A stretch of DNA of 64,000 bases from a virus. Taxonomy: Duplodnaviria > Caudoviricetes. Under the pieces are notes generated by a model. It searched no databases and was not told the origin of the DNA. It saw only the letters and a program-made list of their open reading frames with translations. Position numbers and translations under genes: made by a program. Below are positions 18,353 through 33,200 of the stretch, piece by piece (positions within the stretch are counted from its first letter, which is position 1; each line of letters starts with the position of its first letter). Where the stretch lies: IMG/VR virus record IMGVR_UViG_3300028833_000053. One strand, 5' to 3'.

Positions 18353-19294
18353 ATGATAACAGGTTTCATGGGCATAGCGTATTCCACGGACGAAATCAAG
18401 AATGGAAGGTTTGTGGACAAGAATCTGGAAAGCGATTTTATTCAAAAGAGGTACTCCCTTTTGAGAAGTCCCGACCGCAGCGCGTTCAACGAAAGCGCGT
18501 GGAGAAAAGGCACTGTTGAGGCAAGAAAGGAGTTCCTTTCCATGCTTGAAGCGACTGAGAGAATGAACACCGCCGACTTTGAGCGAGAAGAGGACGTGCC
18601 AAACGAGGAAGTGCTTCCAACGGACACCTTCACGTATGTTGGTGAAGATCATCCTCCAAAGGAAGTTCAAACCATCATAATCTCAGGTGACGTGAAGGAA
18701 ATAGAGACCGGTGCGTTCAAGGACTTGCCAAACCTGAAGTCCGTGGTTTTCTCCGACGAGACTTCAGACCTTCGCATTGAGAAGAACGCCTTTGAGAACT
18801 GCCCAATGCTCACGACAATCAGATTGAATGGAGTAACATTCATAGGCGACGAGGCTTTCTTGAACTGCGTTGGACTTGTGGCGGTTGAACTTGGGTCGGA
18901 CGTCCAGCACATTGGCATGGGCGCGTTCAAGAACTGCACGTCGTTGTCAACCGTGACGATTCCACCGAACGTGACCTTCATCGGAGACTACGCCTTTGCC
19001 AACTGCACCACGTTGAAAACTGTGACCGTGATGGATGGCGTTGTGGAAATCCCTGCATACTGCTTCCAGAACGACCCCGCCATTGAACAAGTTGAACTTC
19101 CAACTTCCATCGAGAAGGTTGGCAACAACGCCTTTGAGAACTGCGCTTCCGCGGTTGTGCTTATTCCAACGGACGATATGAAGGAAGCCGAAGAGGTGCT
19201 TGGCGTGAAGATGGTTGCGAAGGCCGAAGAGGATGACAAACTGTTCAAGTGCGACCAGGGATATATCGTGCAGCTCTACAAGGATCTATACTGA
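18353..19294 (+). CDS. BspA-type LRR protein
   Basis: Repeats such as 'IGDEAFLNC', 'IGDYAFANCTTL'. Confidence 0.85.
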   Translation: MITGFMGIAYSTDEIKNGRFVDKNLESDFIQKRYSLLRSPDRSAFNESAWRKGTVEARKEFLSMLEATERMNTADFEREEDVPNEEVLPTDTFTYVGEDHPPKEVQTIIISGDVKEIETGAFKDLPNLKSVVFSDETSDLRIEKNAFENCPMLTTIRLNGVTFIGDEAFLNCVGLVAVELGSDVQHIGMGAFKNCTSLSTVTIPPNVTFIGDYAFANCTTLKTVTVMDGVVEIPAYCFQNDPAIEQVELPTSIEKVGNNAFENCASAVVLIPTDDMKEAEEVLGVKMVAKAEEDDKLFKCDQGYIVQLYKDLY

Positions 19295-24565: not shown

Positions 24566-25738
24566 TTAGCCGAGCGACATCCCGGCGAGAATGTCATCAA
24601 TCTTCTTGTTGATGTCTCCGTCTGGTGCCGGCGCAGGGGCGAGAGCGGCCTTCTTCGGTTCGGCCTTTGGGGCGGGAGCCGGAGTTGGCGCAGGTGCCGG
24701 TGCAGGAATGTCATCGGCGTCCTCGGTCACGTCCTTTGCAACAGGATCCCCAACCACGGGATCGCCAACCACAGGGTCTTTGGCAACAGGCGCAGGAGCC
24801 ACGGGCTTCACTGCCTCGGCATATGCCACTGGAGCCTTGGGAGCCGCCACCGGAGGAATGTCCATGGGAATGTCATCATTGACATTGGACTGGGAAGAGA
24901 AGTTCTCAATGTAGAACTGCTCAAGCTCCTCCTTCGTGGGAACCGTGTACCAATTGGCGTCGAACTGAACGTCATCCACCAACTCGTCCGTCAGGGAGTC
25001 AAGGTGCTTCGGGGCGGTGGTGAAACCAATCCTCGTGAAACCATTCTTCATGAAACGGAACTCGTTGGGCTTGCCCTCGTTCTTCACCTTCTCAACCTTG
25101 CCCCAAGTGAAGAACAAATCGCAAGCATCGTTGTTCCAAATCGGAGTGTTGTTCGCCTGAGATGCGTTGATCTGGGTGAGAAGAGCCTGATAGCCGTCCT
25201 CGTCAAGGGTGAGAACCTTCACCGCGCCATCGTTCGCCTCGTAGTTGGGGTCCGAAACCACATACACAAGGACGCGGACTGCCAAAGTGTTGTGAAGGGA
25301 CTTCATCTTCCCCTTGGCTTCCTGGTTCTTGAAATGGGAATCGTTGAAAGCCTTCCAAGCTGCACCGTATGCGTTGCACATCGGGCACTGGGACTTCGTG
25401 AGCGTGGAATTCGCCTTGACGTAATCCGTCTGCGGACACACAATCGTGCGGCTCACGCGCTTCGGCTTCGCGGGATCGTCCGTAGGCACTTCCTTCCAAA
25501 CCTGGTGGATGTGCTGAATGATGAACGGGAAGTCCCTGTAGTGGGCGAAGTTGGAAGAGGAAACAAAATTCGGATGTGGCTGCGTATTCAACAGGCGCAC
25601 ACGGTAGAACTTTCCCTCTTCGGTTGGACGCAAGAACAACTGGGAAGTGTTCTTTGCGAATTCACGGTTCTTCCTCTGAGTGAGAAGACCCGTCATTATT
25701 GAACTGGTCGGCATTCCGACATGTGTATTTGTCATCAT
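24566..25738 (-). CDS. Single-stranded DNA-binding protein, T4 gp32-like
   Basis: 'YRVRLL', Zn ligands (H...CP...CPMC), 'VYVVSDP...NDGAVKVL', flexible linker and acidic tail 'IDDILAGM'. Confidence 0.8.
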   Translation of the reverse strand: MMTNTHVGMPTSSIMTGLLTQRKNREFAKNTSQLFLRPTEEGKFYRVRLLNTQPHPNFVSSSNFAHYRDFPFIIQHIHQVWKEVPTDDPAKPKRVSRTIVCPQTDYVKANSTLTKSQCPMCNAYGAAWKAFNDSHFKNQEAKGKMKSLHNTLAVRVLVYVVSDPNYEANDGAVKVLTLDEDGYQALLTQINASQANNTPIWNNDACDLFFTWGKVEKVKNEGKPNEFRFMKNGFTRIGFTTAPKHLDSLTDELVDDVQFDANWYTVPTKEELEQFYIENFSSQSNVNDDIPMDIPPVAAPKAPVAYAEAVKPVAPAPVAKDPVVGDPVVGDPVAKDVTEDADDIPAPAPAPTPAPAPKAEPKKAALAPAPAPDGDINKKIDDILAGMSLG

Positions 25739-25855: not shown

Positions 25856-26269
25856 TCAGCCATTCAACTTTATTACCTCTATGGCGTTCTTGATGTTGTA
25901 CCCGAACTCCGACAAGGACGCAATAGCCTGTGCAATCACCTCAAGCGACAAGTCAATGTTCTTCTTTGTCGCGTCTATCTTTTTCAAGGTCTCGTCCTCC
26001 TGGTTCATCGTCTTCAACTTGTCAAACGCGCTTCCTTTCGCCTTTTCAGCCAATGACTTTTGGTACTCAGCGCGTATGCCGTTCAACCTCTGCAAAGTCT
26101 CCTTCTCCTTTGCCATGTACCCAACCCATTTGGCTTTCATGGAAGAAGTTGTAAGGGCTTTCTCACGCAAATTCGCAAGGGTGAGGTTCAAGTCCTCTTT
26201 CAATTCCCTTGAATACTGCATCGCAGGGGAATCCTGCCTCTTCTCTGTCTCTTCAATTTCCATAGTCAT
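25856..26269 (-). CDS. uvsY: UvsY-like recombination mediator
   Basis: 137-aa helical protein ending 'FGYNIKNAIEVIK', like the UvsY C-terminus; adjacent to gp32. Confidence 0.7.
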   Translation of the reverse strand: MTMEIEETEKRQDSPAMQYSRELKEDLNLTLANLREKALTTSSMKAKWVGYMAKEKETLQRLNGIRAEYQKSLAEKAKGSAFDKLKTMNQEDETLKKIDATKKNIDLSLEVIAQAIASLSEFGYNIKNAIEVIKLNG

Positions 26270-26273
26270 CCTT

Positions 26274-26302
26274 ATTATACCAGGAAAAAGATTTTTCGTA
26301 AA
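26274..26302 (-). promoter_or_regulatory. Sigma70-type promoter for uvsY
   Basis: TTTACG-N17-TATAAT with extended TG. Confidence 0.6.
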
Positions 26303-26390
26303 GTGTAAATACTGTGGTTTATTGCAAATGGCAAACTGCGTATAATTTAGCTAAACTAGCTTGAACGAGTACATTTTGAGAAAAACGACA

Positions 26391-27920
26391 ATGGCAACTG
26401 AAAAGAGAACAAGAGGAAAGCGCAAAATGGCGAAAAAAGCCAACGACGCGGTTGTTTCCATTCAGTTGCACGGTCTGAAACCCTTAAATGAATCCAATTT
26501 ACCCATCATCGACACCACCATAAAGACCTTCAATTCGGCATCCAGATGCGCGTTCAAGAGGTTCAAGCAGATTGGGTTGAAGGGGATGTGGAAAAAAGTT
26601 GGAAGAAAAAATTTCTGGCAAATTGACAAGGACGCGGGCTCACCCATCCAAGGCGCAATCGCCTCTGTCAAGTATTGGCTTGAAGCAAACAACTACGAAT
26701 TGGATTCCACCCTGACCCAAAACGCAGTGATGGAAGGGTTCAGAAACTACATGTCATTTGAACGCCAACAGTCAAAGTGGCGCACGTCAAAGACCAGCCC
26801 ATCGTTCGGCGACATGGATGCAAGGTCAAGGAACAAACTCACCAAAGAGGAATTCCAACTTACAAGAAATGGCTCAATGACCGTGATTGGCAAGGCAAGA
26901 AACGGCAATCCAAAGTTCAGGTTTGACGTTGAGAACAGCATTGTCAGTTTCCTCTATAAAAGGAAAAAACTGGGCTTTTCCTTCCTTTCAAACCGTTTCT
27001 CCAGGAAGAGCATTGAAAAACTGAACGACATCGCAAGGTTTATGTCAGAAGGTAAACTTCCAGTGACAATGACCTTGACAAAGACCGACAATGAAAAGTA
27101 CAACCTGACCCTGACATATTCCGAAAAGGAATTCCGCGAATTGAAAAAAGAATGTCCCAGACTACGTTCCAGTATTGTCAGTGGGATATGGGTCAGTGAC
27201 GAAGTTATACACCATCAGATAGTTGACGCAAGCAGGAACAACAAAGTCCTTCACGCGCATACCTACAAGGTTGAGGAGTTCTCCGGCGAAAAGAAGTTCA
27301 GAGACTATCTTGAAAGCCGCAGACTTGAACATGACTGGCATATAGTCAACAAGTTAAAGGAACGCGCCAAGAACAAACTTCTGGTTGGTGCAAGAAAGAC
27401 ACTTGCAAAGATTTTCAACATAAGCAAGTCCTATGGGGCAAAAACGGTTGTGCTTGAAAAGCCAACTTCCAAGAGCAAGAGAAGTTTCAACTGCTCCCTC
27501 ATAGGATTCAACAAGTTCTCCGTCCAAAACGGAACCGGAAAGAGCTGCTTCATGACATATTCCAAGTTCGTGCAGATGGTGAAAAGCCAATGTGCGAAGT
27601 CTGGAATGGAAATGTCCATGGTGAACGGAGAGTTCATCCAGCTCAAGGCTATTTTAGATTCAACCAGCGTTTCGGACGCAATAGGGAACGCCTGCTCCGA
27701 AATGTTGGCAAGACAAACAAGAGGATATGACCCCCGCCTGACCGACTGGCGCAAGTATATGTCCCAAGACCCTTCCATGCTTGATTGGGTCGGACATCTG
27801 CTTCACAACAAACGCTCTCGGCAGGCAAGGGGTGAAATCAAAGTCGCGTTCCAAACAAGGGCCGTGGAGAAAGCGGTCCGCCTAATTGACAAAAGGCAAA
27901 TACGCAACGCATCCGTCTGA
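26391..27920 (+). CDS. IS200/IS605 TnpB-related protein with apparently inactivated RuvC
   Basis: TnpB-like order of features (FNSASRCAFKRF; GNPKFRFD; VVLEKP; CAKSG..MSMVN; DAI..ACSEMLAR), but RuvC-I reads GIWVS instead of GIDxN; no adjacent transposase. Confidence 0.7.
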   Translation: MATEKRTRGKRKMAKKANDAVVSIQLHGLKPLNESNLPIIDTTIKTFNSASRCAFKRFKQIGLKGMWKKVGRKNFWQIDKDAGSPIQGAIASVKYWLEANNYELDSTLTQNAVMEGFRNYMSFERQQSKWRTSKTSPSFGDMDARSRNKLTKEEFQLTRNGSMTVIGKARNGNPKFRFDVENSIVSFLYKRKKLGFSFLSNRFSRKSIEKLNDIARFMSEGKLPVTMTLTKTDNEKYNLTLTYSEKEFRELKKECPRLRSSIVSGIWVSDEVIHHQIVDASRNNKVLHAHTYKVEEFSGEKKFRDYLESRRLEHDWHIVNKLKERAKNKLLVGARKTLAKIFNISKSYGAKTVVLEKPTSKSKRSFNCSLIGFNKFSVQNGTGKSCFMTYSKFVQMVKSQCAKSGMEMSMVNGEFIQLKAILDSTSVSDAIGNACSEMLARQTRGYDPRLTDWRKYMSQDPSMLDWVGHLLHNKRSRQARGEIKVAFQTRAVEKAVRLIDKRQIRNASV

Positions 27921-28500
27921 GCATTAGGTTCGGACACATGCCTATGGCAATGCGTTGGCGGGCATTTCGTAATATCCACCATTGGCTTAACCAGCCTTTC
28001 ATAAGGGATTTATCCGCCTTTATGACTGTTTATGACAGAGTACATAATATACCGTTAATGTTTCTTGACAATTAAATTTCAAGTTCCTAACTTCACAATG
28101 AAATTCAAGTTAAAAAGAACTTATTGTAGAAGACTTCATGTTGGAAAAATATTGAATAGAAGAATTGATGTTGGAACATTGTATAAAGGAATTTTACATG
28201 TTGGGTATTGTAAAGTCCAGGTTTCACAATATCCAACTTCGTTGGATAGGAAACAATTGGAAGTCAGAGAATGGTCTAACGACCATTGGATGTTTTCTTC
28301 GGCAAGCCTTGAAAACATCCGGAACGAACAAGTCTTACTTGAAAAGCCTTTCACAGGAAATTTAACATATTCTTTGGGAATTTCGACGAATGTATCTTCT
28401 CAAGCCTGGGAAGTTTGACATATGTCCGTCCCAACCCCGGAATGTTTAATTAATATAGGAGATATATAGATGATAGGAGGACAGGGATTTATTTTATTGT
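27921..28500 (+). ncRNA. Putative structured non-coding RNA region with degenerate ~30-nt repeats
   Basis: 580-bp AT-rich gap with several hairpins, an ATGACT-N17-TATAAT promoter at 28022-28050, and ATGTTGG at 28138/28168/28198. Confidence 0.45.
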
Positions 28501-28503
28501 CCA

Positions 28504-30283: not shown

Positions 30284-33200
30284 TCAATTGAACTTCAGCC
30301 AAGACGGCGCCCCGTATCTTCCCTTGTGCTGCTCCATTTCGTTCTGGAAGCATCTTCCTATTTCATGCCTGGTTTCATCATCTTCCCACATTGGGGAGTC
30401 AATAAGTGCATCGTACATGTCCTTTGCGGTCATCAAGTCACGGTAGTCAAGGGAATCATCGTTGAACAGGATGTGGATTATCTTGTCGGGGTCGTCAGTG
30501 ATGAATTCCTTTTCAACGTCCCATCCCTTTGCATATCCACCTGACTTCTTCACTTTCCTCTTCCTGTGAACCTTGAACAGCCCTTCGTTGAACTTGAAGT
30601 CATAACGTATCATGTCAACTGGCATCTTGCCCTCTCCGGGAATCTCATCCGTCTTGAGGATTTCCCTGTGGCCGCCCATCGCAATAGCCTTGAGCAGAAT
30701 CATCCTTATCGCCCCCTTTGGATTGATGTCGTCTGGATTCTCGCCATCCGGCACTTCAAGTTCCTGGTTTCCGTGCATTCCCCACGTCACGAACTTCATG
30801 TTGTTCGTGATGACGAAATCCAACTGCACGTACTTGTTCTCCTGCTTTCCATCGTCGTTTGCAATCGGCCAGAAGCATGACACGGACTTCCATCCATATC
30901 CCTTCGCGGTCGCATCGTAAACGTCGAGTTCGTCGAACAGGTCTTGGCAGAAGTCCACGAATTCCTCTGGTGTTTCGCAACCGGTTCCCTTCATCACCTT
31001 GTCCTGTGGCATTGCAAGGTCAATGTCCCCTGACGTGCCGCCCGGAAGTTTCTTTCCGGTTGAACCCACGCTTTCAACATCATCCTTCGTCAAACCCAAT
31101 TTTGGAAGAAGCCTCTTGAAGATGTCATCCAAAGTGCCTTTGACGTTTTCCTGGTTTATCCTTGCTTTCAGTTCTTCCGGACAATCGCTCTTGGCATGTC
31201 CACCCTCGTTCACCTGTTGTTTCTTGTTGAACTTGTCGGCTCTTGTCTGGTCGGTCATTGAAGGATAGTCGCCACTTTCGGGATTCAATATGGAATACAC
31301 TTCCTCAAACTGCTCTTCGCTCAATTCGCTTGGGAGAACCTTGCGCAACGCCTCCTTGTCGTCGATGTGGTCTCTGACATAGGAAGCTGAAATGTTGTCG
31401 TTCCCCTCTTGTGTTGCGTCAATGGCGTTTTCCTCTATTGGAAGTATCTCCACGTTCTGCAGAGTGTCCTTGAACTTGTCGGTTGTGAACGCGCTGAACC
31501 TTGACATGTCATCTTTCTTTGACAAGCCAAACATGACCTTGCAGTTGGAGAAGTGGCGAACGGTTGCGGAAATCCAGTTCATTGGATTCAACGTCATTGC
31601 TATCTGAACGTTGTCAAGGTGCGCCGCCTTGCAGTAGATTTCAAGGATTTCTCCCGCCACGAAATTCGGCATTGCGCGTCCCAACTTGTCGTATCTCTGG
31701 GATGCCACGTTTGTCTGTCCGGAAACCGCCACGATAACCTCGTCGCAAATCTCGGCGTAGTGCTTTATCATGTCAAGGTGTCCCTTGTGCGGAGGTCTGA
31801 ATGAACCCGGAATCAGGGCAATGGTCTTTCCCTTCTGGTCAACAACCTTGCCGTCAATCATCTCCACAAGGGACATGACGTCCGTGGTCAGCCTTGATGG
31901 GTCAAACCTCTCTGGCAGGTTCTTCGCCCTGTCCTTTGAGATTCCATCTATGAACTTCGGTAGGTCCGTCCTTGTCTCGGCGTTCTTCACAAGTTCCTGT
32001 GCGCGTTCAATGTACTTTGGCAGAAGTTCCGAATACTTGTCTTGGTATTGCTCTGGGTTCTGCCTCACCTTGTTCACCATCTGGACAAGGCTTGCGCGTT
32101 CGGGGCTTCCCGTTATGTTCGCAAGGAAGAGCTTCGTGAAGTCCTTCATTTCGTCAATCTCTGAGAAGTAGCCGTTGCGTATGTCCTTCCATGACTGGTA
32201 GTGTATGCCATAGAGACGTCCGTTCAACTCGAAAGCCACGCCCTCAAGAGAACCATCGTCAGCCGGCATTATGCCGGGGTTCTTGAACTTCTTCTTCATC
32301 AAGTCCGTCATGGATGCGTTTATCTAGTCCCTTACGGTCTCCGCCTGGTCTTTCTTCATCTTCTCGGGTGGCGTGTTCTTCAAAGCCTGTATGACTTCAT
32401 CCGGGAAGTCCGAAGCAGAAACCTCAACTTCCTGAGCGAACTTGTTTATATCGAAGTAGGAGGCTGAGGAATCCGAAAGTTCGGAGCAGGCGAAGTCAAT
32501 CACCTTCTGCTTCTGCTCCGGTTCAAGGTCAAACGTCCTCTCCTTCGTCATACCCTTCGCGTCAATCACAACAAGAGAACCCTTTGAACCCAGCTTGTTC
32601 GCGTCATAGGTCGTGCCGACATAGGTTATGGTTCCGTTTTTGTCCTTGAACTCGTCGCCATTCGCAAGAAGCTCGCCAATCAACTTCACGCCCTCAACCC
32701 CAACTTCGTGAAGGAAACCAGCCATCTTCTTGTTCTGGTGTTGTTCAACGTAGTCGTAGAAGTTCCTTTCGTGTGGGTGTACGCTCTTGTTGGATTCCAC
32801 GCCCTGCTTGTCCATCAACCCGGAATATGAAAGCTCCATGAACACCTTGCCGTCCATCCAGGCAACCCTAAAAGGATAGCCGTCAATCTTTGGCGTGGTC
32901 TTTATCATCAACGAGGAATCGTTCACTCCCGAAATGAAGTCCTGAAGAAACTGGCGCAAGTCCTTTCCAGTCAATTGGTGGATTTTCGTCATGGCTTGAC
33001 GTGGCGTGTCAATCTCCGCCATGTCCTTCGTGGAACGTATGGATTCGTCGATTTCTTCCGGTGTTTCGTAGTCGCTCACCTTCAATCCAAGGAAATCCTC
33101 CAGTTCGGGTGGTAGGTAGTCTATGCTTCCCTTCTTCAAGGGTCTTTCAATTCCCGTCTTGAGGGATTTCTTGAACTGCTCCGCCCTTGCTGGGTTCTTC

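Follow-up and report, generated by a model that had tools for sequence, protein, structure and literature searches.

Only recently have nuclease-dead relatives of TnpB been recognised as a class of natural RNA-guided regulators; homologs in which one to three acidic residues are lost function in RNA-guided repression (PMC10705468). The examples known so far were detected with sequence models in bacteria and temperate phages. Among them, the TldRs (Wiegand et al., PMC10705468; Xiao et al., PMC13622181) combine a TnpB fold and a deteriorated RuvC domain with the loss of the transposon context, a stable linkage to non-transposase genes, and a guide-RNA-like scaffold at and behind the 3' end of the gene. 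Some TldRs are phage-borne, and those described so far are found on temperate phages. A nuclease-dead miniature Cas12/TnpB fold is also used by dCas12f, which acts with sigma-E in RNA-guided transcription (Hoffmann et al., PMC13472631; PDB 9n9c, 9n9m), and Cas12k of the type V-K CRISPR-associated transposons (PDB 7n3o, 8axb) has a naturally inactive RuvC and a long structured guide RNA. ISDra2-type TnpB with its omegaRNA (PDB 8h1j, 8exa) trims its own transcript by RuvC.

Here we describe a phage-encoded 509-aa protein which shares the above traits of the TldRs. Unlike them it escapes the TnpB Pfam models, has no zinc finger, and is approximately 100 aa longer, with a conserved C-terminal helical extension at the place where TldRs tend to be shortened. 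Further differences are the position of its gene in the replication/recombination core of phage contigs of 215-434 kb and the much greater length of its RNA region (approximately 700 nt); a guide, a TAM and a promoter target were not identified for the phage protein. With ISDra2 TnpB it shares the fold and a sense-strand RNA scaffold overlapping the ORF end, but the D-E-D triad, the TNB zinc finger, TnpA and the IS ends are missing, the gene is present in a single copy, and the protein presumably cannot trim its own transcript. Although dCas12f is its second-best structural match, the examined loci contain no sigma-factor gene (no sigma domain was found among the neighbours) and no CRISPR array, and in contrast to Cas12k (TM up to 0.51) there are neither Tn7-like genes nor an array. 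The nearest relatives by sequence are viral TnpB-like proteins with the domain PF27229 (SSO2105_N), which also have no zinc finger and the same domain order. However, these keep the motifs GID, VE and PDM, have a length of approximately 440-500 aa, and are without the conserved C-terminal extension.

The family has the fold and the omegaRNA layout of TnpB, but neither matches to the sequence models nor the triad, the zinc finger or the transposon. It fits the nuclease-dead TnpB class. It is a very divergent, previously undescribed variant within the polyphyletic nuclease-dead TnpB derivatives (TldR-like), and our literature search revealed no paper describing it.

Locus and features

The window, i.e. 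the whole stretch of 64,000 nt that was analysed, corresponds to positions 55,500-119,499, read on the reverse strand, of a virus record which comprises 433,895 bp and has direct terminal repeats. The public runs containing this stretch are gut and rumen metagenomes of sheep and cattle. In genome coordinates the TnpB-like gene is located at approximately 91 kb. The features of the locus are listed in Table 1.

Table 1. Features in and around the TnpB-like gene (window coordinates).
Feature	Position	Strand	Description
gp32-like gene	24566-25738	-	weak Pfam match
UvsY-like gene	25856-26269	-	Pfam 29.1 bits, cut-off 22.8
Divergent promoter pair (predicted)	26270-26350	-/+	conserved, same layout in 14/14 homolog loci
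Promoter region of the TnpB-like gene (predicted)	26305-26346	+	GTAAATA 26305-26311, -10 TATAAT 26341-26346
ORF of the 509-aa protein (P0001), predicted TnpB/Cas12f fold	26391-27920	+	open frame
Hairpin 0	27767-27792	+	stem (G/A)ACCC with GGGU(C/U), invariant 14-nt loop
Stem A	27859-27879	+	6 bp, 9-nt loop, within codons for (R/G)xVEKAxR
Stem B	27880-27897	+	4-6 bp around loop nTTGACAn, directly before the stop codon
Block 1, CATTTCGTAATATCCA	27963-27978	+	16 nt, near-invariant, 35-50 nt past the stop in every locus
Stem C	27983-27997		hairpin 2-5 nt past block 1, often AACCA loop
Block 2 and TGACA box	28040-28071 (block 2, GTACATAATATACC, 28040-28053)	-	putative sigma-70-like promoter, towards the gene
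AT-rich degenerate repeats	28074-28216		two copies of AAATTTCAAGTT; three units of 30 nt with ATGTTGG at their centre
Further conserved hairpins	28222-28460		TATCCAAC-TTC-GTTGGATA; GGTC-TAAC-GACC; GGATGTTTTC...GAAAACATCC; closing T-rich AATAT-AGG motif

Predicted fold and active site

A preliminary description of this DNA had proposed an intact ORF of 509 codons with a TnpB-related layout. The frame is indeed open and translates into 509 aa, and the fold match goes beyond chance (Foldseek E 3e-10; VIA Z 16.3 over 355 residues). No Pfam or PHROG family matches the protein, and among the NCBIfam models only TIGR01766 (TnpB-related) was reached, below its threshold (16.3 bits at a cut-off of 32, E 0.01); the protein falls short of the curated TnpB models PF01385, PF07282 and TIGR01766. 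Neither its DNA nor its amino acid sequence has a match in 50,697 deposited phage records, and none of the solved structures matches it by sequence.

Using 38 homologs as alignment, an AlphaFold2 model with a pLDDT of 83.5 and a pTM of 0.72 was built. A Foldseek comparison to the PDB retrieved Cas12f, Cas12k, Fanzor2 and ISDra2 TnpB with E values from 3e-10 to 1e-5 and TM scores up to 0.51. VIA, an independent all-against-all aligner, resulted in Z scores of 16.3 for AsCas12f, 15.9 for dCas12f, 14.3 for Cas12k and 13.5 for ISDra2 TnpB, and the RuvC core alone matched RuvC resolvases with Z scores of 10-12. According to the model, the protein has the WED-REC-RuvC fold of TnpB and Cas12, followed by a conserved helical C-terminal extension (residues 445-509) which is not covered by the structural matches.

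The alignment of the family profile with three intact viral relatives by hhalign (99.3% probability, E 1e-20) places GIW on GID, VVLEK on VxVEx, VNGEFIQ on VNAAYSS, and Asp429 (27675-27677) on the Asp of PDM, which corresponds to the RuvC-III column. The previously reported motifs are all present: Trp267 in SGIWVS (TGG, 27189-27191) at the RuvC-I position, the retained RuvC-II residue Glu356 in VVLEK (27456-27458), and VNGEFIQ as the degenerate VNPAYSS segment, the equivalent of VNAAYSS in the intact relatives. Thus, profile alignment and structure prediction bear out the D-to-W exchange at RuvC-I and the TnpB/Cas12 fold. In a hand alignment Ser426 had been taken for the RuvC-III residue; it was dropped, since the profile alignment to Asp429 is better supported.

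In the RuvC-I column of the 38 aligned homologs there are 22 Trp and 16 Tyr, but never an acidic residue, and the most distant member of the family (P0066) has a Tyr. The Glu356 column contains Glu in all 38 sequences, and the RuvC-III column is acidic in 30 of them (10 Asp, 20 Glu, 3 Gly, 4 Ala, 1 Lys). The Asp-Glu-Asp triad of RuvC is therefore absent from the family. The claim that the protein is nuclease-dead stands as far as RuvC-I is concerned, where the Asp is replaced family-wide, but not for the RuvC-III acid: Asp429 is kept, so that the protein is "dead" by one residue of three. With an invariant Glu356 and Asp429 present, it may have some metal-dependent activity.

It was also considered that the protein is still a nuclease, in which Asp270 or Glu271 would complete the site together with Glu356 and Asp429. 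Indeed, three to four residues past the lost Asp, 32/38 homologs have an Asp at position 270 and 37/38 an acidic residue (Asp or Glu) at position 271, in addition to the invariant Glu356 and the mostly acidic position 429. However, positions 270 and 429 are variable (Gly, Arg, Ala and Lys occur), unlike a catalytic residue, the intact relatives retain the canonical GID, and in every member of the family the bulky Trp or Tyr occupies the position of the metal site. We therefore regard nuclease activity of this kind as improbable.

The zinc-finger (TNB) insert is absent from the protein: approximately 15 residues separate VNGEFIQ from the helix 427-444, there are no CxxC pairs, and Cys401, located upstream of VNGEFIQ, is the sole invariant Cys in the C-terminal half.

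A conserved phage family at a fixed genomic position

By a word-indexed search we found 63 clusters with 36-61% identity, nearly all of them comprising proteins of 505-592 aa encoded by intact frames. The carriers are rumen and gut phage contigs, several of which have a length of 215-418 kb, and include three complete genomes of 414-434 kb. When 1.8 billion representatives were searched exhaustively with HMMER, only 20 matched, so that the family is small and isolated. The 434-kb genome harbours one copy of the TnpB-like gene.

The weakest matches of the family search, P0071, P0074 and P0075, are proteins of 442-496 aa on virus-like contigs. They contain PF27229 and, with the motifs GID, V-E, VNAAYSS and PDMVAAS, an intact RuvC triad. 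The contigs of the nearest intact relatives are L148 (carrying P0075) and L150 (carrying P0071). Relatives with PF27229 form a big, mostly viral group of TnpB-like proteins without zinc finger, with 8,041 members in one Atlas cluster, and are probably active phage nucleases.

The dN/dS values of 0.15-0.29 in eight pairs of homologs reveal purifying selection, and the upstream neighbours are the same in 10/10 loci for which upstream genes were listed. In all loci with enough flanking sequence, the TnpB-like gene is divergent from the UvsY-like gene, which is followed by a gene for a gp32-like protein of approximately 370-390 aa; most loci have a phosphoesterase gene next. On the 3' side of the TnpB-like gene there are always 550-1100 nt without a called gene, beyond which the genes vary from locus to locus. 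The absence of a transposase neighbour, noticed earlier, was confirmed: in the window the ORF is surrounded by uvsY-like, gp32-like, phosphoesterase and tail sheath genes instead. TnpA, IS ends and additional copies, which would be expected for IS200/IS605, were not found, the gene being single in 434 kb.

Purifying selection and fixed synteny argue for domestication and against a decaying insertion sequence. That the gene is a functionless remnant of an IS200/IS605 element, as could be thought from the lost Asp and from nothing else, is extremely unlikely in view of the low dN/dS, the intact frames of 505-592 aa in approximately 60 clusters, the single copy in a fixed environment, and the lack of TnpA. 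The dN/dS values, frames and synteny likewise rule out that the homologs are decaying IS remnants, the outcome against which the preliminary description had cautioned.

Structured RNA at the end of the ORF

The omegaRNAs of TnpB proteins overlap the 3' end of tnpB. In the phage family, the last 150 nt of the ORF are spanned by a structured RNA in the sense direction, which consists of three hairpins with compensatory changes (hairpin 0, stems A and B in Table 1); a structured sense-strand RNA overlapping the ORF 3' end is thus a feature it has in common with IS200/IS605 TnpB. Synonymous codon identity reaches 0.92 at residues 455-464, compared to 0.53 overall. The structure was analyzed by RNAalifold and by direct counting of pairs in a gapless 136-nt alignment of 16 distinct sequences. 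In the three hairpins together, 97.3% of the cells are paired, compared to 85.7% in shuffles and 27-49% in controls with slid partners, and 27 double-change cells were observed where 6.6 are expected.

In hairpin 0, 22 nt (27769-27790) are identical in 16/16 loci, although they encode the amino acids DPSMLDWV, and a G-C pair is changed to A-U in four sequences. In stem A, all cells (100%) are paired, changes of both partners are seen in three of the six pairs, and one pair is present in four types. The amino acids encoded by the flanking codons co-vary (Ala..Val, Val..Thr, Thr..Val, Met..Ile), and by this joint change the protein yields to the RNA. In 10/16 sequences stem A contains a G-U pair, which would be C-A on the opposite strand, and we conclude that the RNA is sense. 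Stem B, at 27881-27896 in this alignment, differs between the loci, with the variants CCUG/CAGG, UCUC/GAGA, UCUG/CAGA and GAAUGC/GCAUUC. The RNA matches no Rfam family, and two covariance models detected no extra copies in the genome.

Promoters and the region downstream of the stop codon

The GTAAATA and TATAAT boxes which had been noticed upstream of the ORF are both present and recur at the same place in the examined homologs, with a distance of 25-29 nt between them in 14/14 loci. CGTAAA, adjoining GTAAATA, serves as the -35 for the divergently oriented uvsY-like promoter, which on the minus strand reads TTTACG-17 nt-TATAAT with an extended TG. On the plus strand, a tandem GTAAA(G)..GTAAATA is located 25-29 nt before GTATAATT. 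Judged by its motifs, this conserved divergent layout suggests a host with sigma-70-type promoters. A match to block 1 in the own promoter of the gene, TTTCGTAA, was discarded; it is part of the uvsY-like -35 and is not kept elsewhere.

Downstream of the stop codon, each of the 19 distinct loci whose sequence extends into this region contains blocks 1 and 2 in near-invariant form. Both are unique in the 434-kb genome and are therefore not general phage promoters. Block 1 is a candidate 3' guide or protein-contact segment. Pairing between the two blocks was considered and rejected, since the few natural changes break pairs and none of them is compensating. For stem C, differing stems were found at the same place in 15/17 distinct sequences; in a count with fixed register 71% are paired and the covariation score was reached by 7/500 shuffles, a modest formal support which is due to the varying register. 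Its pairs are all Watson-Crick and thus compatible with either strand.

Block 2 is part of the best sigma-70-like site of the region (TTGTCA-16 nt-TATTAT on the minus strand, scan score 10/12). A -35-like box is located 16-17 nt from block 2 in 11/14 loci, as counted on the alignment, and this conserved arrangement makes an antisense transcript towards the gene end likely.

Past block 2 there are approximately 450 nt of repeats and hairpins. At the place of the AT-rich repeats, other loci contain the related motifs ATATTGAAG and ATGTTGGAA, 6-12 times per locus. In the window and in the loci L002-L026 the degenerate repeats are purine-rich (ATGTTGGAA, ATATTGAAG, ATTGTAGA), with a period of 30 nt in the window and of 16 nt in L026. 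Reading the hairpins at 28222-28460 by eye, we found a compensatory difference in L019 (GGTTGTTTTC/GAAAACAACC) and another in L005 and L023 (GAATGTC/GACATTC in comparison to GAATGCC/GGCATTC). The small ORFs in 27921-28503 do not encode a conserved peptide, there is no CRISPR array at the locus, and consensus folding of the whole region on a MAFFT alignment was unsuccessful.

The AT-rich repeats with their 30-nt spacing and the location in a replication and recombination module raise the question whether the region past the stop codon functions chiefly as DNA, for instance as a replication origin or an iteron field bound by proteins, with the TnpB-like protein as a mere neighbour. In line with this, the gap travels with the gene while the genes further downstream differ. 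However, covarying hairpins indicate a function in single-stranded form, and gene and region were never found apart in 19 loci. Moreover, the cumulative GC skew of the whole genome, with a profile as produced either by replication in both directions or by two large blocks of transcription, has one clear minimum at approximately 50 kb and one maximum at approximately 290 kb, and the locus at 91 kb coincides with neither. Considering these arguments, we give the DNA element little credit.

RNA-library contigs and target searches

In RNA libraries from sheep rumen, contigs cover the ORF and the entire downstream region, while in a cattle library the coverage of the ORF is limited to 27788-27978; these are assembled contigs and hence do not reveal strand, ends or levels. 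In X3 no contig covers 26256-26365, and RNA-library contigs from two studies terminate at positions 27978 and 27979, where block 1 ends. Both observations are weak hints, the second one at an RNA ending with block 1, but the common stop could also result from branching between strains in the assembly graph. Being invariant, 16 nt long and located at this hinted RNA end, block 1 is the best guide candidate.

A guide-target pair was found neither in the phage genome nor in 185,579 bacterial and archaeal genomes. The segment 27700-28520 shares as many exact 12-14-nt matches with the remainder of the genome as expected by chance, and no k-mers derived from the blocks are enriched in the phage genome. 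In host genomes the block 1 16-mer is found at at least 120 unrelated places in all phyla, where approximately 280 chance matches were estimated, and the bacterial matches listed have no common flank.

A site at approximately 406.9 kb, which covers the ribosome site and the start codon of a gene for a secreted-looking protein, would pair with block 1 via two wobble pairs. It was rejected as a target: the start region is unrelated in the homolog of a sister phage, indicating that the complementarity is due to chance. The gene at this place (G000:C1:406284-406919, minus strand; L154/L156) encodes a 212-aa protein with a signal-peptide-like start, and its homolog in the sister phage, G001, contains an in-frame TAG.

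Proposed function

The arrangement of a RuvC-fold protein lacking a catalytic residue and a sense-strand scaffold, which covers the ORF end and extends onward, is that of TnpB and its omegaRNA, and by this analogy the product is most likely a non-cutting, nucleic-acid-binding ribonucleoprotein. We consider it, on balance, probable that the gene encodes a domesticated, divergent TnpB which has lost RuvC cutting and forms a ribonucleoprotein with the structured RNA of its own transcript, with omegaRNA-like, non-cleaving targeting. Binding of this RNA by the protein would resemble that of the omegaRNA by TnpB; a short RNA segment, for which block 1 is the best candidate, would then direct binding without cleavage to complementary DNA, and binding would repress or otherwise mark the target site. 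Of the previous proposal of a domesticated RNA-guided DNA-binding regulator, the parts concerning fold, loss of the RuvC-I residue, selection and synteny are upheld, and a co-encoded RNA can be added, but a guide-target pair is missing. Since the target searches were negative or at chance level, DNA binding, guide and biological role are inferred here from the TnpB model. A simple omegaRNA picture does not account for the conserved antisense promoter at block 2.

This promoter, which faces the gene end, is one of the reasons to consider that the protein-RNA complex acts on RNA only, influencing stability or translation of its own transcript or acting together with the antisense RNA from block 2, with no DNA targeting involved. 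Other reasons are the location of the structured RNA in the protein's own mRNA and the outcome of the DNA target searches, which revealed none. On the other hand, all characterised proteins with the TnpB/Cas12 fold use RNA to find DNA, and the WED and REC parts, which hold the heteroduplex, were modelled with high confidence. In addition, the further conserved elements (RNA or DNA), which span approximately 450 nt, are much for simple autoregulation. We consider an action on RNA only to be unlikely, without dismissing it.

A different role of the ribonucleoprotein would be in the replication and recombination machinery of the phage: an R-loop opened by the RNA at a fixed site, perhaps within the adjoining repeat-rich region, could prime or license replication or recombination. 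R-loops act likewise at the T4 origin beside uvsY. This role is at present a long shot; if true, genome replication would here have recruited an RNA-guided protein, the first such case. The fixed place beside uvsY and gp32 raises the question whether huge phages use RNA-guided binding in replication and recombination rather than in the control of transcription.

In the preferred reading, that of a domesticated TnpB with non-cleaving targeting, the family is important for several reasons. It is invisible to the sequence models for TnpB, is conserved in the core region of rumen and gut phages of very large size, and has an unusually long and well supported RNA partner. Thereby it widens the known range of TnpB domestication. 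Last but not least, the 509-aa protein is a compact, naturally inactive scaffold with a defined RNA.

Other genes in the window

No tRNA gene was found in the window. At 30284-32311 (minus strand), a 675-aa protein with a cytidylyltransferase-like domain (PF01467) is encoded next to two big ORFs of 589 and 874 aa which match no family. At 18353-19294 (plus strand), and thus within the phage, there is a gene for a 313-aa protein with leucine-rich repeats of the BspA type (PF13306, E 6e-44).
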